From a virus: 64,000 nt of DNA. Location: positions 14,356 through 78,355 of IMG/VR virus record IMGVR_UViG_3300045256_000653; one strand, 5' to 3'. Made by a program: the position numbers and the translations under genes. Of the stretch, positions 3,268 through 60,480 are shown piece after piece (within the stretch, counting starts at the first letter, position 1; each line of letters begins with the position of its first letter). The notes below the pieces were generated by a model, which was given only the letters and a program-made list of their open reading frames with translations, was not told the DNA's origin and did not search any database.

Positions 3268-4382
3268 GGATAGATCACGCTCGTGTAGCCGTTGACCTTC
3301 TCGATGCCATAGGAGGGCGTTGCCAAGGAGGTGTCGAGCGTGTAGCCCTCACACTCGTTGATCTCGACGTATGTCGGTGCCGGCGACGTCCACTGAATCT
3401 TCTTGCCCCCCGTCTTGAACTTGAGCAGGCGCGCGATGAACCGGTCGCAATCGCCCACCTTGATGACGACATCTCCAGCAGGAGAATTGCCGAAGTCACA
3501 GTTGTCCACTTCGAGGTTGCGGCAGAAGTCTGCGACGATGCAGGGGTTACCCGAACCCGGATTGAACGCGCAACCGGTGACCTGACCGTGATCGATGACG
3601 AAGCTTCCAGTAGGAAGAATGCCGATACATCCAGCAGGGACGCTCGATTCGAAATAGCACTGCTCAACCTTCACACCACCGTACGCCGTGACAGCGCCGT
3701 CGAGACCCTGGTTGGCCAACCAGAGCCACATGTTACCCGAGCTTCCAGACTTCGAAGTGAGAGACACTCCAGCGATGACCGCTTCTCCGATTTGGAAACG
3801 GCAGCCCTTGACGACGCAGGAGTCACGGAGCCCGCTGATAGAGAGAACGCCGCCTTGAAGGGCGGTCCCCGCGTAGTCGCAGCCTTTGAAAAGACAGCCC
3901 TCCACTAGAGCGGTGTCCGCAACGATTCGGGCGATCCCGTAGTTCGTTGCGTTGCAACTGAGTCCCAAGAACTGGCAGTCCCTCAAGATGCCTGTACGAG
4001 CTTGATTGATCGTCACGACGTTCGGCACATTCACGCCGGGCGCCGGGTTGCCGGTGAAGATCAAATCTTCGACGACGATCATCGCGTTCGAGTTTCCGAC
4101 TTGTAGAAGGGAGACTCCCGCGAGGGGCGCTTGAATGATCGTCCGACCTCGCATCCCACAAACCGTGATGCTCTTGTCGTTGTTGCAGTCGATGTTGACG
4201 AAGGTGGTCCACCCCCATTGGAGGGCGTCTGCACGAGGCGGGATGTAGATGACCCCGCCACCGTCCGCAATCGCAGCATTTCCGGCTGCCTGGACGGCCG
4301 GTCCGATGTCGGTCGGCGAAGAAAGCGCCCCGAATTTACGAATGTCGAATACCTCGACACTGTGGCTGGTCAGGACGCTCAT
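3264..4382 (-). CDS. Pectin-lyase-like beta-helix protein (tailspike/depolymerase-like)
   Basis: VFDIRKFGA..DIGPAVQAA..GGGVIYIP motif; paralog of neighbours; start chosen by alignment to paralogs. Confidence 0.7.
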   Translation of the reverse strand: MSVLTSHSVEVFDIRKFGALSSPTDIGPAVQAAGNAAIADGGGVIYIPPRADALQWGWTTFVNIDCNNDKSITVCGMRGRTIIQAPLAGVSLLQVGNSNAMIVVEDLIFTGNPAPGVNVPNVVTINQARTGILRDCQFLGLSCNATNYGIARIVADTALVEGCLFKGCDYAGTALQGGVLSISGLRDSCVVKGCRFQIGEAVIAGVSLTSKSGSSGNMWLWLANQGLDGAVTAYGGVKVEQCYFESSVPAGCIGILPTGSFVIDHGQVTGCAFNPGSGNPCIVADFCRNLEVDNCDFGNSPAGDVVIKVGDCDRFIARLLKFKTGGKKIQWTSPAPTYVEINECEGYTLDTSLATPSYGIEKVNGYTSVIYP

Positions 4383-7921: not shown

Positions 7922-10609
7922 TCACCCATCGAACGCTTGGATGAGGAAGGACTGCTCGCTGAGATTGTGCGCGCCGCCGCCGAACCCTCCTGGTTGGGCA
8001 GCGGACAAGTTCGCGTACGTCTCGGCGAGAGGGTTGGAATACGACCCAGCGCCCTCGTTGAAGAATCGCGCTTTCCCTCCGGAGCCAAGTTTGAATTGGC
8101 CCAGGGTCCCGTAGATGTTGGGGAGGTGTTCCCAAGAGCCTTGCGTAGAGCCTCCGACCCAGAGGCCGACCCCCGCCGCTCCGCTTCCAAAGATTGGGAA
8201 GTTGCCTCTGTCCCCGAGTTTCACAAGACCCGCTGTCGAGTGGTGTCCGGGTGTGCCTAGAAGGAGTGCGTGGCCATGCGGGTTATCGCCGAAGGCAACG
8301 GCGTCCCAGATGGAGATCGAACGAATCTGAGTGCCGCCGTGAACAATGACGTACCCGGTCTGGATGGTGGTGTGGTAATCGAGAACGCCCGCATCCCCCA
8401 ACCCACCAGAGACTCGCGCGATGGCGATCCCAAAGTTATCCGTGCGAATGAGAGCGCCGCCGCAATATCCCATACCACCCGAGGGCGATTGCGAGATGCT
8501 GATCTCGTTAAGGCCCCAGGTCCTGCAATTGCCGAAGAGCGTCGTTCCATTGCTAGGGTCATTGAGGAAGTAGCCCTCAATGAGGCACCGGTAGAAGAAG
8601 GCCGGGTTTCCGGTTGAGGTTGTAACCGCGAAGCTTCGATCGTTCGGATTCGTCTGGATCGTAAGGTCCGCGATGTTGGTGTTGCTGGCCGAACCAAATG
8701 TGCCGGACACGTCGAGTACGGAGTCCAGGTAGATGTGGCCGAAGTTCACGGACACGGGATCTTGGATTTGGTACGCGTCGCCGTTCCCCGGGAAGCTGTT
8801 CGTCGGAATCGGGTTGAAGTTCGGCTCGTCCACCGTTTGGGGGACAGAGATCCGCGCCTGGTGCCCGCCGAGGTCTTTCAGGATGTAGGCCCAAGAGTTG
8901 GCAACGGGGAAGAAGATCCGCTTGCCGATGTAGGGCGTCCAGTTGGCGAGGTTGCTGTCCCGAATGATCGTCGGAGAGCCCCCGTTCGCTCCGGTCGGAT
9001 TCCAGGGCGTGAAACCGCCGAGCGCATCCAGAGAGCCCGAGTGGAGGGTGGTCGTGTTCTCTCCGAGGATGCGGATGAACGTGTCCTTCGCGGCGATGAC
9101 GTCCAACTCGAAGCTGTCGGGTGCGTTGATCGGATTCAGAATGTGAATGTTGGTTTCGAGCGAGATGGGTTCCGCAGACAGAACGTTTCGCCTACCCCAC
9201 CGGCGCAGAAGCTCTTGAGCCGTCCTGAGCGGTGCAGGAGATCCGGGCGTGTTCGTGTAGATCCCTTGGTTCTCGTCGTTGCCGTTAACCGAATCGATGT
9301 AGACGTTCGCGATCTTCGTGCGCCAATCGGCGTGGTTGAACGTCGTGCGGATCCAACGGGTGTTTCCGCCGAACGCGGTGGCTTCCACTGTGATGTGATC
9401 GACGGTCTCGGACGAGTTGCTTGCGAAGACGAAGTACGACTTGAGCGTCTGCACGTACGCCTGGTCGCCATCGTGCCCGTACATCGAGGTCAACGCTGCG
9501 ACGTTGGCTGCGAGAAGTTCTCGTCCGCTCGTCTTGACGGTAAGGCTGGCCGGCGTGCCGCCCGAGAAGTTGAGCGAATACCCGGTCGCTTCATCGAAGG
9601 ACACGTAGCCAACGCTCGCCCCGAACTTGATCCGGTTGCCGCTCTGGTAGAAGCCCGTGCGTGCGACTCGGAGAACGTCGGTGCTATCAACGTCGATCGC
9701 ATTGGAGGGGCTTGCCGGACCGGCGAAGGTTCCGCGCTCGACATCCAGCGAGGTGACGTTGCGGACGTAGATGCCGGCGCCGTTCGGAATGAGATCGGAG
9801 GTAGGAACCGTCCATCCACAGCCCGTGAAGGCAACCCGATGGATCCGGAAGCCACCCGTTTGCGGGGCGAGAGCGACGGAATACTTCGCACCGCTGTCGA
9901 ACGTGCAGTTTCGGAACTCGACTTCACCGAGCCCGGACGTCGGTGGGTTGGCCGCCTGGTTTCCGATCCAGATCCAGCCTTTGCCGTTTCCCTTCCCGTG
10001 TGCGGTTCCGTTGAGCGTGCCGCTGTTCTCGAATCGAACGCTGTCGAAGAGAGCGCCCTTCACGGGCAGCGAGTAGCTGATGCAGGCTCCGAGAGCGTCG
10101 GTGCCGCCGAAGTAGCAGCCGCAGAAGTAGAGGTCGCGTGCGTAGACCTTTCCGGCCAAACGAACGATGCCGGAGGCGTCCGTGTCCACTCGGACGCCGT
10201 AGAAGGACAGACCTTCGAGGGCCGCTTGGCTTGCGCCAGCGAGATCGAGAAGGTTCGTGCAGTCGGCGGTGATGATCGGGTTGCCGGCAAAAACAAGCTT
10301 CCGGACAGCCACCATCCCGATCGCGTTTTGAATGACGAGGCGACCGAGTTGCTGGTTGGCCTCTCCGACCTTGATGATGCTCGCCGAGCCCTCCCCAAAA
10401 ATCTCGACGTTGTTGGCGAGGCCGGCAAAGTCCTTCGAGGCCAGAGTGCTCCAAAGCCAAACGCCCGGAGGAATGTAGACACGTCCGCCGCCCGCAAGCG
10501 CGACTTGATTCAGTGCGCTTTGGACTGCCGGTCCGATGTCTTGGTTTTCGATTGCTCCGAACGTTCGGATGTCGAAGACCTCTTCGGAATGTCGGAAGAG
10601 GACATTCAC
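7922..10609 (-). CDS. Mosaic tailspike/fibre protein (beta-helix N-terminus plus shared C-terminal module)
   Basis: GTG start with GTGA overlap; VFDIRTFGA..DIGPAVQSAL; YIDSVNGNDENQG module. Confidence 0.7.
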   Translation of the reverse strand: MNVLFRHSEEVFDIRTFGAIENQDIGPAVQSALNQVALAGGGRVYIPPGVWLWSTLASKDFAGLANNVEIFGEGSASIIKVGEANQQLGRLVIQNAIGMVAVRKLVFAGNPIITADCTNLLDLAGASQAALEGLSFYGVRVDTDASGIVRLAGKVYARDLYFCGCYFGGTDALGACISYSLPVKGALFDSVRFENSGTLNGTAHGKGNGKGWIWIGNQAANPPTSGLGEVEFRNCTFDSGAKYSVALAPQTGGFRIHRVAFTGCGWTVPTSDLIPNGAGIYVRNVTSLDVERGTFAGPASPSNAIDVDSTDVLRVARTGFYQSGNRIKFGASVGYVSFDEATGYSLNFSGGTPASLTVKTSGRELLAANVAALTSMYGHDGDQAYVQTLKSYFVFASNSSETVDHITVEATAFGGNTRWIRTTFNHADWRTKIANVYIDSVNGNDENQGIYTNTPGSPAPLRTAQELLRRWGRRNVLSAEPISLETNIHILNPINAPDSFELDVIAAKDTFIRILGENTTTLHSGSLDALGGFTPWNPTGANGGSPTIIRDSNLANWTPYIGKRIFFPVANSWAYILKDLGGHQARISVPQTVDEPNFNPIPTNSFPGNGDAYQIQDPVSVNFGHIYLDSVLDVSGTFGSASNTNIADLTIQTNPNDRSFAVTTSTGNPAFFYRCLIEGYFLNDPSNGTTLFGNCRTWGLNEISISQSPSGGMGYCGGALIRTDNFGIAIARVSGGLGDAGVLDYHTTIQTGYVIVHGGTQIRSISIWDAVAFGDNPHGHALLLGTPGHHSTAGLVKLGDRGNFPIFGSGAAGVGLWVGGSTQGSWEHLPNIYGTLGQFKLGSGGKARFFNEGAGSYSNPLAETYANLSAAQPGGFGGGAHNLSEQSFLIQAFDG

Positions 10610-40772: not shown

Positions 40773-40934
40773 GATCGCGCCCAGCAACCCGTGAAGCACA
40801 CAAGCATCCCGCAAGGGATATGCAGGTTCGAATCCTGCTCCCCTCACTTCTACGAGGGGATGGCGGAATTGGAAGACGCACTGGTATAAGGGACCAGCCG
40901 AAAGGCAGACTGCTACACACCCTCGGGCGCGATC
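40773..40934 (+). ncRNA. Circularly permuted tRNA-Leu-like ncRNA (Y-RNA-like)
   Basis: Outer stem gatcgcgccc/gggcgcgatc; T arm (40822-40838) and acceptor 3' strand precede acceptor 5' strand, D arm and anticodon arm. Confidence 0.8.
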
Positions 40935-41661: not shown

Positions 41662-41779
41662 CCGGGCTGCTGTTCCGCAGCCCAACACACTTCCCACCTC
41701 GACTCTCTTCGGGGAGTCCGCACAGGGCGGTGTATTCACTTAATTCGGCGACGTGCGAAGCCGAGATCGGATCGGAACA

Positions 41780-43657
41780 ATGGCAAACGAGAATCTTGGA
41801 CCCGCCGAGCGGATCATCAACTCTCTGCTCGCGTACACGGACCACATGGTCCACAACCGCCCGGGCGTGGTCATCCCGGATCGCCGCTTCAACACCGGCG
41901 TGCGCTGGCAATTCGTCACGCACAAGGAGGAAGGCGGCCAAAAGGTCGTCTACGCCCTCACGAAGGTGGGCAAGAAGACGACGAGGACCCGCCTTGGTGT
42001 GATGCAGCCGGATCGTAGCGTCGTCGAGAACGGCGCGAAGATCGGCGATTACCGCCCGGCCGGATACAACCGCGAGGCGGCTGCCTGGATGTACCGACAG
42101 GTCGCCGAGGTGTGGAAGCTCGACAACGAGTTCGCGGCCCGCTGGGCCTCGTACGCGTTCAAGAACGACAAGAACCGCGACCTCAAGGTCATTCTCTGCG
42201 CGTTCATGCTCGTTCAGAGCCGCCAAGGTGATCCGGTCAAGGGCGCCGATGGCAAGGTCGAATTCTTCGACGACGACTTCCGTGAGGTCGGTGAGGCGAT
42301 GATCCTCAGCGACGAGAAGGGTGTCGAGCACTTCGACGCCAAGCTCCTCATCCGGGTGCGCGAGATCCTCTCGCTTCCGGAGATCGCGACCATCAACCGG
42401 GAACTCGGCTTCGGGCGCTCGACGCGCAAGGCGCCGCTCGGTCGTTGGGAGAAGGCGGTCACGCGGTGGCTCCAATACCGGGAGCGCAACCCGAAGATGC
42501 TCGAAGGTCTCGTCAAGGCGGGCCTTCGGAACAAGGTCGTGTCGCTCGCTCAGCAGGTCGGCTACAAGCCGGACTCGCCGAACTTCTACCGGATCCTCCG
42601 GTGGGAGCAAAACCAGGCGAAGGACGGTCACCGCCAGCTCGCGATCGGCGAGGCAGTCGCTGCCGGGGAAACCTGGGAGGGCCTCACCGAGGAGCAGGTC
42701 TGCCAGCGCATCATGAAGGACAAGCCGAAGTGGAACCGTCTCGCGGTCATGCTCCCCAAGAGCACCGGGTTGACGAGGGCCATCATGGCAGCGGCGATCG
42801 AGGCGGGTTCCGTCTCGAACAAGGAACTCATCATCCTTTCGCCGACGCTCGAAGAGCTTGGCCTTCTCCAAGTTCAGAACATCCGAGAGCGTTGGGAGCG
42901 TGCGCAGCGTGAGGCGGAAGACACTCGCGCGGCCAACGTCGCTCAACGCATGAAGTCGAAGGAGGCGCAAGAGAAGCTCCAAGAGGCAGCCGACGTCGCG
43001 GTCCAAAAGGCCGTGGCCGAGGTCGTCAAGGGGATGCTCGTCTACGTCTGCATCGACATCTCGGGATCGATGACGAACTCGATTCCGACCGCGAAGCAGT
43101 ACATCGCGCAGTTCCTCCAGGGTTTCCCCCCGGAGCAGCTCGTCGTGTGCGTCTTCAACACGGTCGGACGCATCGTCACCATCAAGAGCCCGTCGAAGGC
43201 GGGCGTGGAGAATGCGTTCGCCGGCATTCAGGCGGGTGGTGGCACCGATCACGGATCGGCCATTCGCACGATTGCCAAGCACCGCATGCCCACGGCGGAC
43301 GAGGATGTCGTGATGATCTTCATCGGTGACGGTGGAGAGATCAAGACGTTCGACTCCTCTCTGGCGGTCGATCACATCAAGCCGATGGCCTTCGGGTTCC
43401 TCCAGCTTCCTGGAGACAACTCGGGGTGCATCACCAACACGGCGGCTCGGCTGGGTATCCCGTGCTTCAACATCGACGAGGGAATCTTCGCGGACCCGTA
43501 TGCGATTCCGCGTACGCTCCGTGCCCTCATCGCTGCAACCCCGGTGGGCCAAGCTCCCCGGACGCAGGCAGCTCCGCGCGTGTCTCTCGTGGACACGATT
43601 CAAAAGACGGCGCTACTCAAGAAGCCGGCATGGGCAACCGTGGTCGCAACAGCGTAA
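41780..43657 (+). CDS. Ro60/Rsr-like TROVE-domain protein with C-terminal vWA domain
   Basis: Helical N-terminal part with ETWE motif; VCIDISGSM MIDAS, GGGTDHG, IFIGDG; flanked by tRNA-like ncRNAs. Confidence 0.7.
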   Translation: MANENLGPAERIINSLLAYTDHMVHNRPGVVIPDRRFNTGVRWQFVTHKEEGGQKVVYALTKVGKKTTRTRLGVMQPDRSVVENGAKIGDYRPAGYNREAAAWMYRQVAEVWKLDNEFAARWASYAFKNDKNRDLKVILCAFMLVQSRQGDPVKGADGKVEFFDDDFREVGEAMILSDEKGVEHFDAKLLIRVREILSLPEIATINRELGFGRSTRKAPLGRWEKAVTRWLQYRERNPKMLEGLVKAGLRNKVVSLAQQVGYKPDSPNFYRILRWEQNQAKDGHRQLAIGEAVAAGETWEGLTEEQVCQRIMKDKPKWNRLAVMLPKSTGLTRAIMAAAIEAGSVSNKELIILSPTLEELGLLQVQNIRERWERAQREAEDTRAANVAQRMKSKEAQEKLQEAADVAVQKAVAEVVKGMLVYVCIDISGSMTNSIPTAKQYIAQFLQGFPPEQLVVCVFNTVGRIVTIKSPSKAGVENAFAGIQAGGGTDHGSAIRTIAKHRMPTADEDVVMIFIGDGGEIKTFDSSLAVDHIKPMAFGFLQLPGDNSGCITNTAARLGIPCFNIDEGIFADPYAIPRTLRALIAATPVGQAPRTQAAPRVSLVDTIQKTALLKKPAWATVVATA

Positions 43658-43669
43658 GGAGCAAATCAG

Positions 43670-44641
43670 ATGGGATGGAGGGACCTACTTCAAACAGGCG
43701 ACGAGACCCTCGTCTCGCCGTGGGTTGGAGGCAGGTCCCTTCGTTCCGGTCCTCGCACCTGGACGATCGACGGCCGACTCCCTCGGGAGATGGGCTGGTA
43801 CTCGTTCAAGCTCAACGGACGCCGGGCCACACTAAATGGTTCGGCCGATCCGGCGAGCGAGGGTTTCAGAGACGTGGTGCGGGGTTACCTGGTCGGCGAC
43901 CGGCTCGTTCCGGACGGCGCTCGGGTCAACCCCGATCCCACCAAGATCGCAGAGGCGACGGAGACCGTTCTCCTCGTTGACCGTGGGCTCGATCGATTCG
44001 TGCGGATTGCGGCGGGACGCCTCTTTGATGAGGGCCCGCTCATCTTCATGAACCAGGAGATGCCCGTTGGCCCCGAGGATGCGGTCAGCAACGCCTACCT
44101 TCGCCGGCTTCCTTCAGTGAGTGACATCGCCGGAGTGACCCCGGCCCTCGAAGCCGCCTTCCGCATGGAAGTGTGGCAGCGAGAAGAAGCCGAACGTCGG
44201 CGCCTCGAATTGGAGCGCCAGCGTCGGGAAGAAGAGGAACGCAGGCAGCGTGAGGAACGGCGCGAGCAGATGGCGCGCCAGCTCGGAACCGGTACCGGAC
44301 GGCGGGAGATGGCCCTCGTGGACTTCGCCGAAGCCGCTCGTGCTGCGCTCCGGGTTGGAGGTGCCGAGTATCTCGACCACCGGGCATCGTACCGGCCGGG
44401 CGAGATGGTCGTCACCTTCCGGATGCTCAACCGAGCCTTCATGTGCACGTGCGACGAGAAGACGCTTCGCATCATCGATGCTGGCGTTTGCCTCGGGCAC
44501 GGGGACGAGAGAGGGGACACGCGGTTCACTCTCGAATCCTTGCCGGCGGTGATCAACGAAGCTCACCGCACGCATCGATTGGTCGTTCTTCGTCACGTCG
44601 GCGATCAGGACGAACCTGATTGGAGGAACGATGACGATTGA
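43670..44641 (+). CDS. Hypothetical protein, candidate E2-like conjugating component
   Basis: Coiled coil then IIDAGVCL (resembles the G-x-CL catalytic Cys context of E2s); operon context. Confidence 0.45.
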   Translation: MGWRDLLQTGDETLVSPWVGGRSLRSGPRTWTIDGRLPREMGWYSFKLNGRRATLNGSADPASEGFRDVVRGYLVGDRLVPDGARVNPDPTKIAEATETVLLVDRGLDRFVRIAAGRLFDEGPLIFMNQEMPVGPEDAVSNAYLRRLPSVSDIAGVTPALEAAFRMEVWQREEAERRRLELERQRREEEERRQREERREQMARQLGTGTGRREMALVDFAEAARAALRVGGAEYLDHRASYRPGEMVVTFRMLNRAFMCTCDEKTLRIIDAGVCLGHGDERGDTRFTLESLPAVINEAHRTHRLVVLRHVGDQDEPDWRNDDD

Positions 44642-45038
44642 AGCTGGAGTTGTTGTGGGGCGCGACGGCGAGGAGGCTGTCTACTGGCATCTTCCTCCCA
44701 ACAGGAACGTCGTCGCGCTCCCCGACAGCCGAGATCTTTGGGACGTCTTCTGGGAGAACAGGGATCGCATCTCTGGGTTCGCGCACAGCCATCCCGGGCT
44801 CGGCGTTCCCGGCCCCTCCTGGGAAGACCTCACGACATTCGCCGCCGTCGAAGGCGGTCTGGGTCGTCGCCTCAAGTGGTGGATCACGAGCATGAATGCC
44901 GTCTCGGTCCTCACGTGGAAGGGCCCGGGCAAGTACGACTACGAGCTGACCGTGCTCGACAAGGAACCGTCATGGATTCCGGAGCTACGGCGTCTCTCGC
45001 AGAACGAATCAACACCAAACGAGGAGCAGATACGATGA
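44631..45038 (+). CDS. JAB/MPN+ (JAMM) metalloprotease
   Basis: N-terminal E; HSHP...PSWED JAMM motif. Confidence 0.88.
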   Translation: MTIEAGVVVGRDGEEAVYWHLPPNRNVVALPDSRDLWDVFWENRDRISGFAHSHPGLGVPGPSWEDLTTFAAVEGGLGRRLKWWITSMNAVSVLTWKGPGKYDYELTVLDKEPSWIPELRRLSQNESTPNEEQIR

Positions 45039-45310
45039 CGATTCAGGAAAACGAGGCCCAGGTGAACATCACCTGGAACGGAACGAACTTCGAGCTTCCG
45101 GACCCGGTTCTCTTCGAGGCCGCAGACGGAGACCTCAAGCAGTGGGCGGCGGAAGCGATTCGCACGGGCTCGATCCCGGGCTTCGCGGCCGATCCGGCCG
45201 TGGACCTCCGGAATCACATCGTGGACCGCTTCCCGGCGCCGGCTCAGGCCGCGCCCGGCCAGCGTACCCACAACCTCATCCAGATTCGCCCGAAGACGGC
45301 ATTCGGATGA
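45035..45310 (+). CDS. Putative ubiquitin-like protein (91 aa)
   Basis: Between JAB and E1, ATGA-coupled on both sides; beta-grasp-like pattern; ends RPKTAFG. Confidence 0.6.
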   Translation: MTIQENEAQVNITWNGTNFELPDPVLFEAADGDLKQWAAEAIRTGSIPGFAADPAVDLRNHIVDRFPAPAQAAPGQRTHNLIQIRPKTAFG

Positions 45311-45882
45311 AGACCGTGGTCATCGTCGGAGTCGGGGCGCTGGGTTCACACCTCGTGCCCTTGCTCCGGAACGTGGACGCCTCCGTCAAGGTGATCGACT
45401 TCGATCGCGTCGAGGCGAAGAACGTCCTCAGCCAGTTTCACGGCAAGCCGAATGTCGGGAAGCCCAAGGTGCTCTCTCTTCAGAGCACGATGAACTTCCT
45501 CTTCGGCAAGAAGATCGAGACCGTTCCCCACAAGCTCGTGGAGAACAACGCCACCGAGCTTCTCGGCAAGGCTGATCTCGTCATCGACTGCCTCGACAAC
45601 GGGGCAGCTCGCAGGATCGTCCAGGGCTTCGTTCGCAAGAACAACACCCCCTGTTTGCATGGGGCTGTCGATGCGAACGGCAGCTTCGGACGCATCGTTT
45701 GGGACGAGACGTTCGCAATCGACGACGAAGACAAGGCCGGTGCGCCCACCTGCGAAAACGGCGAGCACCTCACGTTCTTGTCGATCGTCGCTTCCTACCT
45801 GGCGCACGCGGCCAGGGAATTTCTCGTGAAGAATCGCAAGCTCGGGTATCAGGTGAGCCCGGGTGGGACTATTCTAACGTGA
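45307..45882 (+). CDS. ThiF/E1-like adenylyltransferase
   Basis: VGVGALGS, IDFDRVEAKN..Q, KPKV, DCLDN..AR; APTCE candidate catalytic Cys. Confidence 0.9.
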   Translation: MKTVVIVGVGALGSHLVPLLRNVDASVKVIDFDRVEAKNVLSQFHGKPNVGKPKVLSLQSTMNFLFGKKIETVPHKLVENNATELLGKADLVIDCLDNGAARRIVQGFVRKNNTPCLHGAVDANGSFGRIVWDETFAIDDEDKAGAPTCENGEHLTFLSIVASYLAHAAREFLVKNRKLGYQVSPGGTILT

Positions 45883-45943: not shown

Positions 45944-46084
45944 GAGGGATATTGGCCGATGGCAGGCCGCGTGACGGTAACTCACGTGCATACGCACAAT
46001 CAGGATTGCACTCTCGGACCTCGCAAGGGGCCCAGCTCCTCGTAGTCCTTACAAGCTTTCTAGGTTCGAATCCTAGGTCCCTCA
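45944..46084 (+). ncRNA. tRNA-like ncRNA with conserved module in the variable loop (GTA at anticodon position)
   Basis: gagggat/gtccctc acceptor; ~75-nt insert; ctaggttcgaatcctag T arm. Confidence 0.78.
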
Positions 46085-46087
46085 CTA

Positions 46088-46255
46088 CTTCGCGCCCAGC
46101 AAAACCCGAAAGACCTTACAAGCAAAGTATGCAGGTTCGAATCCTGCTGAGCCCACCAACGGAGGGTCAAACCTCCGGGGCCCATCGTCTAACGGATAGG
46201 ACACTCGTTATTCAAACGAGCAATCGCAAACAGGTTTCTCAACTCGGGCGCGAAG
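46088..46255 (+). ncRNA. Circularly permuted tRNA-Glu-like ncRNA (Y-RNA-like)
   Basis: cttcgcgccc/gggcgcgaag outer stem; T arm, tgagccc-ACCA, linker hairpin, gggccca, Glu-type D arm, TTC loop. Confidence 0.82.
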
Positions 46256-46307: not shown

Positions 46308-46440
46308 GCCGATCAAGGGCCGTGGGGCCCACCTCTTTGTTAAAGAGCAACAAATCCTGCATTCACCCCTCGGACCTCGAAAGTGGTCCAGCCCCAACGA
46401 GTGCATACAAGCTTGCCAGGTTCGACTCCTGGGATCGGCG
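46308..46440 (+). ncRNA. tRNA-like ncRNA with module insert (GTT at anticodon position)
   Basis: gccgatc/gatcggc acceptor; insert; ccaggttcgactcctgg. Confidence 0.8.
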
Positions 46441-46580: not shown

Positions 46581-46708
46581 GCGGGTCAGGGCCGTGGGGC
46601 CCACTTTCCTCTCCAAGGAACAAACCAGCATGCGCCCTCGGGCCTCGAAAGGGGCTCAGCTCTCAAGCGTGCTCACAAGCTCGTCAGGTTCGACTCCTGA
46701 GACCCGCT
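46581..46708 (+). ncRNA. tRNA-like ncRNA with module insert (TCC at anticodon position)
   Basis: gcgggtc/gacccgc acceptor; insert; tcaggttcgactcctga. Confidence 0.8.
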
Positions 46709-46771: not shown

Positions 46772-46918
46772 GGGGATGTTACAGAGGGATGGACCCTCGC
46801 CTGCCCACGAAGCAGGAGCGAAAGCTCAACCCAGGATCAAACCTCGGATCTCTTCACCGGGATCCAGCCCCCTCTCGGTCCTTACAAGCCCTCGGTTCGA
46901 ATCCGAGACATCCCCCCA
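46772..46918 (+). ncRNA. tRNA-like ncRNA with module insert (ACG at anticodon position)
   Basis: ggggatgt/acatcccc acceptor; insert; ctcggttcgaatccgag. Confidence 0.8.
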
Positions 46919-48697: not shown

Positions 48698-48772
48698 ACG
48701 GACGTGATCTAGCGGCAAAGATGCTGGTTTCCAACTCCAGTCACACAGGTTCGAGTCCTGTCGTCCGTGCCA
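48698..48772 (+). tRNA. tRNA-Trp(CCA)
   Basis: ctggt-ttCCAac-tccag; G73; CCA. Confidence 0.82.
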
Positions 48773-48779
48773 CTTTTCT

Positions 48780-48855
48780 GCGGTCGCATGATCCATGGAG
48801 GCGACAGGGATTCCAAATCCCCGTGTGGTGGGTTCAATTCCCTCAGGCCGCGCCA
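48780..48855 (+). tRNA. tRNA-Trp(CCA), divergent
   Basis: ggga-ttCCAaa-tccc; G73; CCA. Confidence 0.75.
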
Positions 48856-50146: not shown

Positions 50147-50434
50147 ATGAACAAGGCGAGTGCAGCGAAGGTCGCAAACGTTCTCTTCTGGCATGCCGTG
50201 GACATCCTGTTCTACGGCGTCGCGCTCAAGCTTCTCTGGGAGTGGTTCGGTCAGCCGACCTTTCACACGGCGCCGGTTCAATGGATCACGTCATTTGGCC
50301 TCGTGATCATCGTCCGTCTGCTCTTCCCGCCGAAGGAAGAGGAGAAAGCCATCACACTTCAAAACCTCGTCATCGAGGCTCTCGTTCCGGCCCTCCTCAC
50401 CGAGGCCGGTCACTTGATTCACAAGCTTCTCTGA
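50147..50434 (+). CDS. Small membrane protein
   Basis: Hydrophobic segments; CGGTGTA upstream. Confidence 0.65.
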   Translation: MNKASAAKVANVLFWHAVDILFYGVALKLLWEWFGQPTFHTAPVQWITSFGLVIIVRLLFPPKEEEKAITLQNLVIEALVPALLTEAGHLIHKLL

Positions 50435-50440
50435 AAGTCT

Positions 50441-50515
50441 GGGGATGTGGCGCAATGGGAGCGCAACGCCTTTGCAAGGCGAAGGTTGTCGGTTCGAGTC
50501 CGACCATCTCCACCA
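50441..50515 (+). tRNA. tRNA-Ala(TGC)
   Basis: Cloverleaf, CCA. Confidence 0.93.
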
Positions 50516-50516
50516 T

Positions 50517-50593
50517 GCTGGTTTAGCCCTCGTGGGAAGGCACTTTCTTGGTAAGAAAGACTGAGGCGGGTTCGACTCCCGCAACCAGCTCCA
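50517..50593 (+). tRNA. tRNA-Thr(GGT)
   Basis: Cloverleaf, CCA. Confidence 0.9.
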
Positions 50594-50648
50594 ATTCTAC
50601 AAGCATCGCTTACCCATAGCGATAGTTCTCCTATCGACTTCCTTTGGC

Positions 50649-51050
50649 ATGGCAGAGACCAAGCGAAAAGGGGACATTGCGGAAGCCATGATCATGGCTG
50701 AAGCTCTGCGTCGCGGATACAAGGTCGCGATGCCGGTGGGTGAAGACTGGCGCTACGATCTCATCGTTCTCCGAAACGACCGACTCGAACGCGTTCAGTG
50801 TAAGTACACCGAGTCGGACGGCAAAGTCGTGCTCGTGCGTTGCGCCTCGTCAAACAACTGGGGCATCATCAAGTACACGAGTAAGGATGTGGATTGGTTG
50901 GCCGTCTATGATGCGATTTCTTCCAAGTTCTACTTTCTGCCGTCGCACATGTTAGGGGACGGGCGGCGGATGATCAGTCTTCGGCTCGTTCCTGCCGACA
51001 ACGGGCAAACAAAGAACGTGTTGTGGGCAAAAGATTTTGAGACGTGGTAG
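50649..51050 (+). CDS. PD-(D/E)XK endonuclease (I-Ssp6803I-like homing family)
   Basis: TKRKGDIAE..PVGEDWRYDLIV..RVQCK..Y...VDWLAVY. Confidence 0.85.
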   Translation: MAETKRKGDIAEAMIMAEALRRGYKVAMPVGEDWRYDLIVLRNDRLERVQCKYTESDGKVVLVRCASSNNWGIIKYTSKDVDWLAVYDAISSKFYFLPSHMLGDGRRMISLRLVPADNGQTKNVLWAKDFETW

Positions 51051-51056
51051 TTTTTC

Positions 51057-51131
51057 GCCGTCGTAGCTCAATGGCAGAGCAGTTCTTTTGTAAAGAACTG
51101 GTTGGGGGTTCAAGTCCCTTCGACGGCTCCA
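51057..51131 (+). tRNA. tRNA-Thr(TGT)
   Basis: Cloverleaf, CCA. Confidence 0.93.
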
Positions 51132-51138
51132 AAGTTTT

Positions 51139-51210
51139 GCGGGTGTGGCCGACAGGCAAGGCAACTGCCTTCCAAGCAGTATCATGGGAGTTCGAATCTC
51201 CTCGCCCGCT
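51139..51210 (+). tRNA. tRNA-Gly(TCC)
   Basis: Cloverleaf. Confidence 0.9.
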
Positions 51211-51214
51211 CAAT

Positions 51215-51307
51215 GGATTCGATGCCACAGGAGGCGCAAGGGATCCCAAGTCGTATGGGATGTTACGAACCCCTTGAAGTGCGAGGTTCGATCCCTCGCC
51301 GAGTCCA
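51215..51307 (+). tRNA. tRNA-Gly-like gene with ~21-nt insertion in the anticodon loop
   Basis: ggattcg/cgagtcc acceptor; caaggg-atCCCa-[insert]-c-cccttg; T arm; lies among Gly tRNAs. Confidence 0.65.
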
Positions 51308-51316
51308 GGTTTGTTT

Positions 51317-51388
51317 GCGGACGTGGGTCAATGGTTGATCACCTGGTTGCCAGCCAGGGTCATGCGGGTTCGATTCCCGTCGTCCGCT
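51317..51388 (+). tRNA. tRNA-Gly(GCC)
   Basis: Cloverleaf. Confidence 0.9.
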
Positions 51389-51502
51389 CAGAGAGGTAGC
51401 GTGAAATGGGCTGGACGGTTGTTGCCGTGAAGATCCCATGCCAGGTTGGTGGTTCCGCCTGCACGTGAACCGGAGCATGCCCGGAAAACCACACCAATTT
51501 TT

Positions 51503-51576
51503 GCAGGTGTAATTCAGCGGTAGAATGCTTCGTTGCCAACGAAGATGTCGAGGGTTCGAGTCCCTCCACCTGCTCC
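51503..51576 (+). tRNA. tRNA-Gly(GCC)
   Basis: Cloverleaf. Confidence 0.93.
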
Positions 51577-51669
51577 GATGATGCGTCAGTGGCCCGGAGC
51601 AACCCACATGCAAAAGGGGTAGGGTCGAGGGAGATTGTGGGCCCTCAGACCTCGGCGCGTCATCTTCTT

Positions 51670-51742
51670 GCGGATGAAGCCGACGTGGTGAGGCATCTGC
51701 TTCCCAAGCAGACTTAGGCGGGTTCGACTCCCGTCATCCGCT
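51670..51742 (+). tRNA. tRNA-Gly(CCC)
   Basis: Cloverleaf. Confidence 0.9.
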
Positions 51743-51758
51743 CTGTCACAAAAACCCT

Positions 51759-51847
51759 GGCGGGGTGTCCGAATGGTAAGGAGCCGGATTGCAATTCCGC
51801 GTGTGGGACGCAAGTCCTTGCAGGTTCAAGTCCTGTCCTCGCCTCCA
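51759..51847 (+). tRNA. tRNA-Cys(GCA) with long variable arm
   Basis: cgga-ttGCAat-tccg; ggac-gcaa-gtcc extra arm; U73; CCA. Confidence 0.85.
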
Positions 51848-51900
51848 TTTCAGGTTCGCGCTTGATCGAGCGTCCGTCCGCGCATGAACGGAGGACTCAC

Positions 51901-52119
51901 GTGAAAGCAAAGCCGTGTCACTGCGGTGCGAACTGCGACTTTTCAGGAAGAAACGACGAGCCGTGCTGGGGCATCGTCAGCTCGGCAGACGAGCGTGTCA
52001 GTGAAGACGGCGATCAAACGTACGTCCATTGTTGCTCGGGTCACGATGCGTTCGGCAACTACACGCCGAGGCCGTTGACGATGAGCTGTTCCGAGTTCGC
52101 TTACGAAGCCCATTTTTAG
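51901..52119 (+). CDS. Small Cys-rich hypothetical protein
   Basis: GGAGG SD, GTG start. Confidence 0.55.
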   Translation: MKAKPCHCGANCDFSGRNDEPCWGIVSSADERVSEDGDQTYVHCCSGHDAFGNYTPRPLTMSCSEFAYEAHF

Positions 52120-57423: not shown

Positions 57424-57769
57424 GGGGCTGACCAAGTTTCGACGGAGAGCAAGAAGGATAGTTTGCGGGAAACGGCGCTCGACCCGTTCAATCGAGCATC
57501 GCATCAGTCGCCAACGACAATGCATATGCAATCACGGCCAAGGCCGCATGATTGCCGATTCTTAGCTGGGTCGTCCTAGCGGCAAAAGAATCGCCAACCA
57601 ACCAGGGCTGGTCGAAGAGCCGGGCTACCGGGCACGAGACGAGAGGAACAGGATAGCTAGGACGCAGCCGAATCTGCGCACCCAGTCGCCGGGGATACGG
57701 CGTCCAGCCCGTGGATGAAGACGTTCGGACGGCTTTTCGGACCCGGGGGCAGTACCCGGCAGCTCCACC
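57424..57769 (+). ncRNA. ssrA: tmRNA; tag ANDNAYAITAKAA* at 57510-57551
   Basis: ggggctg..ttcgac 5' end, cagctcc-a 3' end with G3:U70, resume-codon ORF ending AA-stop. Confidence 0.93.
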
Positions 57770-57785
57770 CCAAAATGAGATGAAC

Positions 57786-59192: not shown

Positions 59193-59292
59193 CCCAGGGT
59201 GGTGGAACAGGAAGACACACGCCCGATTCGTTTGCTCCCGCATTCGATCGTGCGCTCCGGGAGGAATGTGAGTTCGATTCTCACCCCTGGGA
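59193..59292 (+). pseudogene. Leu-type tRNA-like element lacking a recognisable anticodon arm
   Basis: cccaggg/ccctggg acceptor, Leu-type D arm and T arm intact. Confidence 0.55.
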
Positions 59293-59304
59293 CGAATTTT
59301 GATT

Positions 59305-60099: not shown

Positions 60100-60480
60100 A
60101 TGAGCCTCACCAACGATCAGATCGTGGAAGCCCTCAACGACATGCCCATCATCAAGCTCGTCGAGCTGACCAAGACGCTCGAAGAGAAATGGGGCGTGAA
60201 GGCGGCACCTCAGGTCGTGCAGCAAGGACCGGGGCCGGCTCCGGTTCCGACCGTCATCGCCGAGCAGACGGAATTCAACGTCATTCTCGTCGCGGTCGGC
60301 GAGAAAAAGATCGATGCCATCAAGGCCGTTCGCACGGTCCTCGGCCTCGGTCTGGCGGAAGCCAAGACGTTCGTCGAATCCGGACTCCCCAAGGTCGTGA
60401 AGGAAGGCGTCACCAAAGAGGACGCAGCCTTCATCAAGGGCGAGTTCGAGAAGGCGGGCGCTCAGGTCGAAGTCAAATGA
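60100..60480 (+). CDS. rplL: 50S ribosomal protein L7/L12
   Basis: EL.K.LEEKWGV.AA; EQTEFNVIL..KIDAIKAVR...GLGLAEAK..VE; AGAQVEVK. Confidence 0.95.
   Translation: MSLTNDQIVEALNDMPIIKLVELTKTLEEKWGVKAAPQVVQQGPGPAPVPTVIAEQTEFNVILVAVGEKKIDAIKAVRTVLGLGLAEAKTFVESGLPKVVKEGVTKEDAAFIKGEFEKAGAQVEVK

Follow-up and report, generated by a model that had tools for sequence, protein, structure and literature searches.

A tRNA-shaped gene in the tRNA array of a jumbo phage, with an enlarged anticodon region that can pair with itself

Introduction

How should one read a gene that has the arms of a tRNA but carries additional sequence in its anticodon region, where that sequence can pair with the anticodon loop itself? 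The gene considered here is 93 nt long and lies in a phage tRNA array. A preliminary description labelled it a tRNA-Gly gene with a 21-nt insert at the intron position 37/38, to be either spliced out by enzymes or kept as a shield against anticodon nucleases. We analysed its fold, its closest relatives among tRNA genes, its conservation and the splicing enzymes encoded by related phages.

Results

Genomic setting

The window (the 64,000-nt stretch that was analysed) forms the final 64 kb of a linear virus record of 78,355 nt, which is about 17% complete. It is a piece of a jumbo phage with a bacterial host, because it encodes a protein matching a virion protein, HNH nucleases, a peptide deformylase, a dCTP deaminase, ribosomal protein L7/L12 and a tmRNA. 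Eight related phage records were reached via a conserved protein of the array; two of them are complete, with sizes of up to 448 and 513 kb. These relatives are distant (40–60% identity in the marker protein), and alignment of the marker protein returned no relatives among GTDB genomes. The main features of the locus are:

35955-61195, plus strand: tRNA array with 51 tRNAs called by ARAGORN
51215-51307, plus strand: tRNA-shaped gene; its anticodon region is expanded and pairs with itself, and no CCA end is encoded
57424-57770: tmRNA, inside the array

The 93-nt gene starts 3 nt after a tRNA-Gly(TCC) gene (51139) and ends 9 nt before a tRNA-Gly(GCC) gene (51317). No promoter-like site was found in 50400-52100, and the neighbouring 289-aa open reading frame has no viral relatives that we could find. 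The phage's ribosomal protein L7/L12 is encoded within the array at 60100-60480. An open reading frame for a PD-(D/E)XK endonuclease (50649-51050) lies between two tRNA-Thr genes; it is a mobile insertion, since a contig of a sister phage joins 50593 directly to 51056.

Architecture and predicted fold

The gene can be divided into the following elements:

51215-51221, plus strand: 5' strand of the acceptor stem, pairing with 51300-51306 (7 of 7 pairs, one G-U)
51223-51236, plus strand: short D arm with three firm pairs and a possible U-G
51237-51242, plus strand: 5' strand of the anticodon stem, pairing with 51271-51276 (6 of 6 Watson–Crick)
51243-51250, plus strand: first anticodon-like loop, masked by 51256-51261
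51251-51255, plus strand: hairpin-loop segment that is complementary to 51264-51268 and contains CGU, the codon for an ACG anticodon
51256-51261, plus strand: masking strand
51262-51270, plus strand: second anticodon-like loop with U32, U33, ACG, A37 and A38 and a G-C closing pair
51281-51299, plus strand: T arm, its loop canonical and its stem of 6 bp (5 bp and one extra pair)

A 94-nt stretch is predicted to fold as a cloverleaf at −37.9 kcal/mol (z = −3.30; none of 200 shuffles was as stable), with a 7-bp acceptor stem, a 3-bp D stem, a 6-bp anticodon stem and a 6-bp T stem. An eighth acceptor pair, 51214-51307, is possible and would make G51308 the discriminator. The variable loop has 4 nt, giving a 7/6 branch (or 7/5 with a bulge), and the reduced D arm resembles that of the tRNA-Trp genes of this clade.

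The anticodon stem closes a loop of 28 nt. In the predicted fold, a 6-bp hairpin stacks on this stem (pair probabilities 0.83–0.94) and is followed by a 9-nt bulge. Both anticodon-like loops would be concealed by this folding back. The complementarity between insert and anticodon loop that had been pointed out earlier is exact: 51256-51261 is the complement of 51243-51248, a match that arose in 1,271 of 100,000 shuffles of the insert in a post hoc test. The insert's own stem is likewise real as a pairing possibility (51251-51255 with 51264-51268), and it is 2.6 kcal/mol less stable alone than the first stem alone. The two stems cross in the order of an H-type pseudoknot, and such a combination of 6 and 5 bp was found in 2 of 20,000 shuffles of the 28-nt loop, again tested post hoc. 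The pseudoknot proposed earlier is thus present as an order of pairings and not as two complete helices: the linker 51262-51263, at 2 nt, is presumably too short to cross a 6-bp helix, so that both full stems cannot form together. We take it that a pseudoknot would need the first stem to be shortened to about 4 bp.

At its 3' end, the insert holds a canonical anticodon loop closed by G-C (51263-51269), which 1,041 of 100,000 shuffles, about 1%, also produced in a post hoc test. The second loop is also T-loop-like. ARAGORN missed the gene at its default and at an 85% threshold and called it only at 80%, in another intron register, and Rfam returned no significant match (best E 0.68).

Probable descent from a tRNA-Trp gene rather than a tRNA-Gly gene

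The assignment to tRNA-Gly(CCC) is poorly borne out by comparison with the glycine genes of these arrays. Among 31 Gly genes in the window and the relatives, 30 start with G-C and none with G-G-A, the start of the 93-nt gene, which lacks the Gly acceptor pairs G1-C72 and C2-G71. Its discriminator, A (or G in the 8-bp register), does not settle the matter: of the 20 Gly genes listed, 16 have U and 4 have A. Uncut, the gene has a 28-nt loop in place of a 7-nt one; cut as a glycine tRNA, it would carry A32 instead of a pyrimidine. A32 occurs in only 5 of 258 tRNAs, and A32 together with C38 in 2 of 258. An intact tRNA-Gly(CCC) gene lies nearby and would make a spliced Gly(CCC) product redundant. 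The G-G-A start, A32 and this ordinary gene together speak against the Gly(CCC) label.

51670-51743, plus strand: intact tRNA-Gly(CCC)
48780-48855, plus strand: odd tRNA-Trp(CCA), closest paralog and probable source of the tRNA body

In global alignments against 408 distinct tRNA genes, the second of these, tRNA-Trp(CCA), ranked first in each of four comparisons (z = 3.55–4.40). By its sequence, and by the reduced D arm that the two genes share, the 93-nt gene is a paralog of the phage tRNA-Trp(CCA) by descent and not a working tRNA-Trp. The first loop, 51243-51250, offers CCC in the register of the preliminary description and CCA in that of the Trp paralog, and the former amounts to a one-base mis-register. 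All 18 stem pairs that were compared are intact in the 93-nt gene, as against 15 of 18 in the paralog, and seven of the 18 differ between the two genes by two-sided changes that keep the pair. Both tRNA-Trp(CCA) genes of the window (48698-48772 and 48780-48855) are irregular, and the Trp genes of the relatives likewise have a reduced D arm. Assignment to tRNA-Sec or the allo-tRNAs, which have 8/5, 9/4, 8/4 or 9/3 branches and a long variable arm, was rejected, given the 7/6 branch, the 4-nt variable loop and a score of 15.2 bits for RF01852 against a cut-off of 47.

Origin of the insert

A 5-nt direct repeat stands before each of the two anticodon-like loops, 51257-51261 repeating 51240-51244 at a spacing of 17 nt, and MAFFT places the second loop on the anticodon loops of Trp genes. 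We infer that repeat and doubled loop are the trace expected of a tandem duplication of the anticodon arm. Because the stem–loop junction is palindromic, a direct repeat of it is bound to be complementary to the first loop. Agreement between the second repeat unit and the arm of the paralog is only loose. A fragment of a variable loop and T arm may have been the source instead and fits about as well: the top six local matches of the insert all lie in that part of tRNA genes, the best of them in a Trp gene of a relative. Shuffled inserts scored as high in 172 of 500 cases against all tRNAs and in 5 of 500 against ten Trp genes. When natural variable-plus-T-arm fragments were placed in the loop, none of 396 gave the 6+5 pairing and 12 gave a 4+4 pairing. 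The second stem is explained by neither origin.

Splicing

According to the available text of PMC4090602, archaeal tRNA introns require two 3-nt bulges at the splice sites, with a 4-bp helix separating them. A strict bulge–helix–bulge motif is absent from the region, where a search gave three weak one-pair candidates, none at position 37/38; the bulge that comes after the helix formed with the anticodon loop has 9 nt, not 3. Three different cuts yield tRNAs of equal validity. Four cuts made in silico all passed ARAGORN at its default, as Gly(CCC), Gly(CCC), Arg(ACG) and Trp(CCA), and therefore no splice register is singled out; with several clean products available, a clean product is no evidence for any one splice site.

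Introns cut by the eukaryotic TSEN endonuclease have an anticodon–intron pair in which a pyrimidine at position 32 pairs with the third-last purine of the intron, leaving a 3-nt bulge on the 3' side. Here the base at position 32 is A, and its partner lies 9 nt before the 3' junction, so a TSEN intron was rejected. A self-splicing group I or II intron was also rejected: the insert has 21 nt, compared with hundreds of bases for a ribozyme core, and gave no Rfam match.

The splicing endonuclease domain PF01974, which the same search detected in four archaea as positive controls, was found in none of the eight related phage records, two of them complete. The joining enzyme gave a mixed picture. 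RtcB is encoded by five of the eight relatives, in one directly behind the last tRNA of the array, but is missing from one complete relative and was not found in the phage's own record. That record is only 17% complete, so the absence there says little. The presence of RtcB fits tRNA repair as well as splicing, as jumbo phages use RtcB-type ligases to repair cut tRNAs (available text of PMC7824862). The intron reading of the gene is not supported.

Conservation

Contigs from two runs of the probable source sample span the gene with no differences. Over 51056-51575, a contig obtained in an independent study of soil differs by 22 letters and one gap (521 compared with 520 nt). These spanning contigs exclude an assembly artefact. 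A sister phage, about 96% identical over 51056-51575, thus carries the insert too. Among relatives, retention of the insert extends to this sister phage, and the eight more distant records gave no homolog. In those eight records blastn found only 14–22-nt matches (best E 0.038), and one short match that was examined is the T arm of a Leu-like gene. Scanning the relatives' arrays for T arms outside the ARAGORN calls gave no homolog, and at the syntenic site of a relative that shares the Thr-Thr-Gly-Gly-Gly-Gly-Cys-Arg order the sequence is unrelated.

Pattern searches were equally negative. Among viral sequences, the 5' half matched 60 loci, none with the body of the 93-nt gene; the acceptor stem and T arm matched four, none homologous; and the hairpin core with the T loop matched seven, none in a tRNA context. 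The metagenome pattern and the GTDB core pattern each gave no match. All five patterns need exact blocks, so that diverged homologs may escape them. No allele free of the insert, with which the gene was to be compared, turned up in these searches. A blastn search of annotated phages returned 71 records, and among the 30 listed all match only the ordinary tRNA-Gly(GCC) gene. The absence of the 93-nt gene from the distant relatives carries weight because other odd tRNA-like genes of the window are kept in the same relatives. The arrays of window and relatives also hold many other aberrant tRNAs that are not conserved.

Other odd tRNA-like genes of the clade

About 5 kb upstream lies a family of tRNA-like genes with large inserts, together with permuted forms, that is more striking than the 93-nt gene:

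45944-46084, 46308-46440, 46581-46708 and 46773-46915: four tRNA-like genes with an insert in the variable region
about 46090-46255 and about 40775-40932: circularly permuted tRNA-like genes
59193-59293: Leu-like tRNA body with a rebuilt anticodon arm, with counterparts at L063:13238-13327 and L095:1498-1591 (minus strand)

The large-insert genes share a module of about 60 nt (stem, internal loop and hairpin) in the variable region, which ends in ACAAGC just before the T arm. The family also occurs in the related records L067, L072, L063, L079, L090 and L103 and was found in five relatives. In an alignment of 16 copies from the window and four relatives, from which the structure was itself derived, 85.7% of the cells pair and 12 of 14 pairs change on both sides; none of 500 shuffles reached this covariation score, and slid controls gave 33–46%. 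Anticodons differ between corresponding copies. Rfam has no family for these genes, YrlA being matched only at E 0.5. A profile of the family finds its members and not the 93-nt gene, which was rejected as a member; the insert of the 93-nt gene gave no hit at E 10 when pooled and, alone, 5 bits on the wrong strand.

The permuted genes, also found in L067, L072, L079, L090 and L103, run from T arm through an acceptor stem closed by a loop to D arm and anticodon arm, and are enclosed by a terminal stem resembling the large-insert module. This layout is reminiscent of YrlA RNAs in bacteria, but searches for a TROVE/Ro60 gene were negative: TROVE is absent from five of five relatives and was not found in the phage's own record, where, at 17% completeness, absence says little. 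Genes for a vWA protein, a JAB protein and a ThiF/E1-like protein, with a further open reading frame after the vWA gene (41753-45882), make up a ubiquitin-like conjugation cluster. Its end lies 60 nt upstream of the first large-insert gene, and in L063 and L090 the sequence upstream of the family looks ThiF-like on reading.

Further oddities were noted. The Leu-like body with a variable, rebuilt anticodon arm is kept in three phages. The arrays of L062 (about 9742-9978) and L093 (about 2680-2925) contain acceptor, D-arm and T-arm closures around expansions of about 200 nt. In the related record L064 an orphan 3' half of a tRNA-Gly gene (about 3480-3515) lies beside an endonuclease-like stretch. 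An unrelated viral tRNA-like fold in L086 (2001-2096, minus strand), with a long acceptor extension and a rebuilt anticodon arm, is a chance match.

Discussion

Weighing the explanations

Our leading, and still tentative, reading is that the 93-nt gene is a tolerated, unspliced, non-decoding and lineage-restricted look-alike of tRNA-Trp. A copy of the unusual tRNA-Trp(CCA) would have gained, within its anticodon arm, an internal duplication or insertion of about 17–21 nt. The second stem strand acquired in this way is predicted to fold back over the first loop and hide it, so that no 7-nt anticodon loop is presented. With its acceptor, D and T arms intact, the RNA is probably released from the array transcript in the same way as the neighbouring tRNAs. 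It may then persist, near-neutral and taking no part in decoding, in an array whose members turn over fast. Against such a relic stands the lack of decay, all 18 stem pairs compared being intact, although the seven two-sided changes may predate the insert; so do the rarity of the crossing pairing (2 of 20,000 shuffles) and the retention of the insert in the sister phage. The same observations would suit a selected, anticodon-shielded mimic, a less probable but serious alternative. Such an RNA would stay unspliced, keep elbow and acceptor end and hide both loops in a hairpin, or in a pseudoknot formed when the CGU of the molecule pairs with the ACG loop of the same molecule. Its targets would be host anticodon nucleases, which it would bind or withstand, or else the ribosome or proteins that sense tRNAs, which it would keep occupied. 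In its favour are the complete stems, the crossing 6+5 pairing that no natural fragment reproduced, the canonical loop at the 3' end of the insert, the sister phage, and a clade that keeps RtcB and other non-decoding tRNA-like families with strong covariation. The second stem, which neither origin explains and which sets CGU opposite the ACG loop, is the main reason for keeping it in play. The shielded decoy of the preliminary description thus fits the fold and lacks covariation: there is no homolog beyond the sister phage from which covariation could come. Moreover, direct repeat and palindrome account for the first stem without selection, the second stem is the weaker one, and the shuffle tests were post hoc. 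A more specific version is improbable: pairing of the hairpin-loop CGU with the gene's own ACG loop would form a pseudoknot copying a codon–anticodon duplex, with a complete tRNA body beneath, and the RNA would serve to resist anticodon nucleases or to engage the ribosome without mRNA. Pseudoknot I of the dicistrovirus IRES does mimic a codon–anticodon duplex.

We give equally little credence to a protein-spliced mini-intron, whereby a phage or host endonuclease would remove 19–21 nt and RtcB would join the halves into Gly CCC, Trp CCA or Arg ACG. Removal of 21 nt does leave a regular 72-nt cloverleaf with a 7-nt loop, the length lies within the archaeal range of 11–129 nt (available text of PMC4090602), and RtcB occurs in most of the relatives. 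Unexplained tRNA inserts are known from Lak phages (as far as the available text of 10.1101/356790 goes), and the clade's permuted tRNA-like genes might themselves need cutting and joining. Yet there is no bulge–helix–bulge, no EndA in any of the eight relatives and a bacterial host, and one complete relative lacks RtcB. A Gly product would have A32 and a non-Gly acceptor, and a Trp product would have C33, seen in 6 of 258 tRNAs. Genes without an interruption already provide each of the three anticodons. The insert, finally, falls outside the insert family that the clade conserves. Least probable is a tRNA-Arg(ACG) that stays unspliced and uses the second loop for decoding, with 51243-51261 bulging as a 19-nt hairpin from the 5' strand of the anticodon stem. 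That loop is fully canonical, one cut product is called Arg(ACG) by ARAGORN, and the gene has an A after the D-loop GG, discriminator A, C35 and G36, which we take to be arginine identity elements. But the fold leaves a single closing pair above a three-way junction (probability 0.2), costs 3.2 kcal/mol and gives the stem one pair too many. Ordinary Arg(ACG) genes are present twice, and none of the Arg genes counted starts with G-G-A.

Comparison with known systems

The closest parallel is with the inserts in tRNA genes of Lak megaphages, to the extent covered by the available parts of 10.1101/356790 and PMC6784885. Like these, the present insert sits at or close to the anticodon loop of a tRNA gene, in a large phage of a bacterial host with no known splicing route, and is kept between close relatives. 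The Lak inserts for which Table S6 of PMC6784885 gives coordinates (14 rows) measure 23–141 nt, compared with about 21 nt here, and the present one differs in holding a second anticodon-like loop. Some Lak inserts have insert-free versions in sister genomes (10.1101/356790; PMC6784885), whereas none was found for the 93-nt gene.

Archaeal bulge–helix–bulge and eukaryotic TSEN introns are, in the available text of PMC4090602, likewise short inserts 3' of the apparent anticodon that pair with the loop. The 93-nt gene departs from them in having no 4-bp helix between 3-nt bulges, a non-Gly body and an ambiguous register, as well as a bacterial host and related phages without the endonuclease. Irregular tRNAs and allo-tRNAs outside translation share with it a tRNA shape with altered arm lengths (Mukai et al., PMC5389517; PMC7609411), and some of them are charged yet not used for decoding, as far as these sources were available. 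Their alterations are 8/4 or 9/3 branches and long variable arms (PMC5389517, in part), whereas here the anticodon arm is altered. Phage tRNAs that evade anticodon nucleases also come in arrays, with a repair enzyme nearby and changes in the anticodon loop; in the available parts of PMC10264068 and PMC11555353 they are working tRNAs with point changes, whereas the 93-nt gene presents no 7-nt loop. We found no account of a two-loop, self-masked tRNA form in a literature search whose coverage of subscription papers was limited.

Implications

The 93-nt gene is a real oddity of a single lineage, and inserts in tRNA genes of large phages were already known. If it is spliced after all, it would represent protein-dependent tRNA splicing in a bacterial cell, which is said not to occur in the available text of PMC4090602. 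If its fold is selected, it would offer a small (93 nt), easily transcribed test of non-decoding phage mimics against tRNA-targeting defences. If, as we tentatively prefer, it is a relic, then duplication of the anticodon arm in phage arrays creates convincing false 'intron' calls, and a single gene can yield three different tRNAs by cutting.
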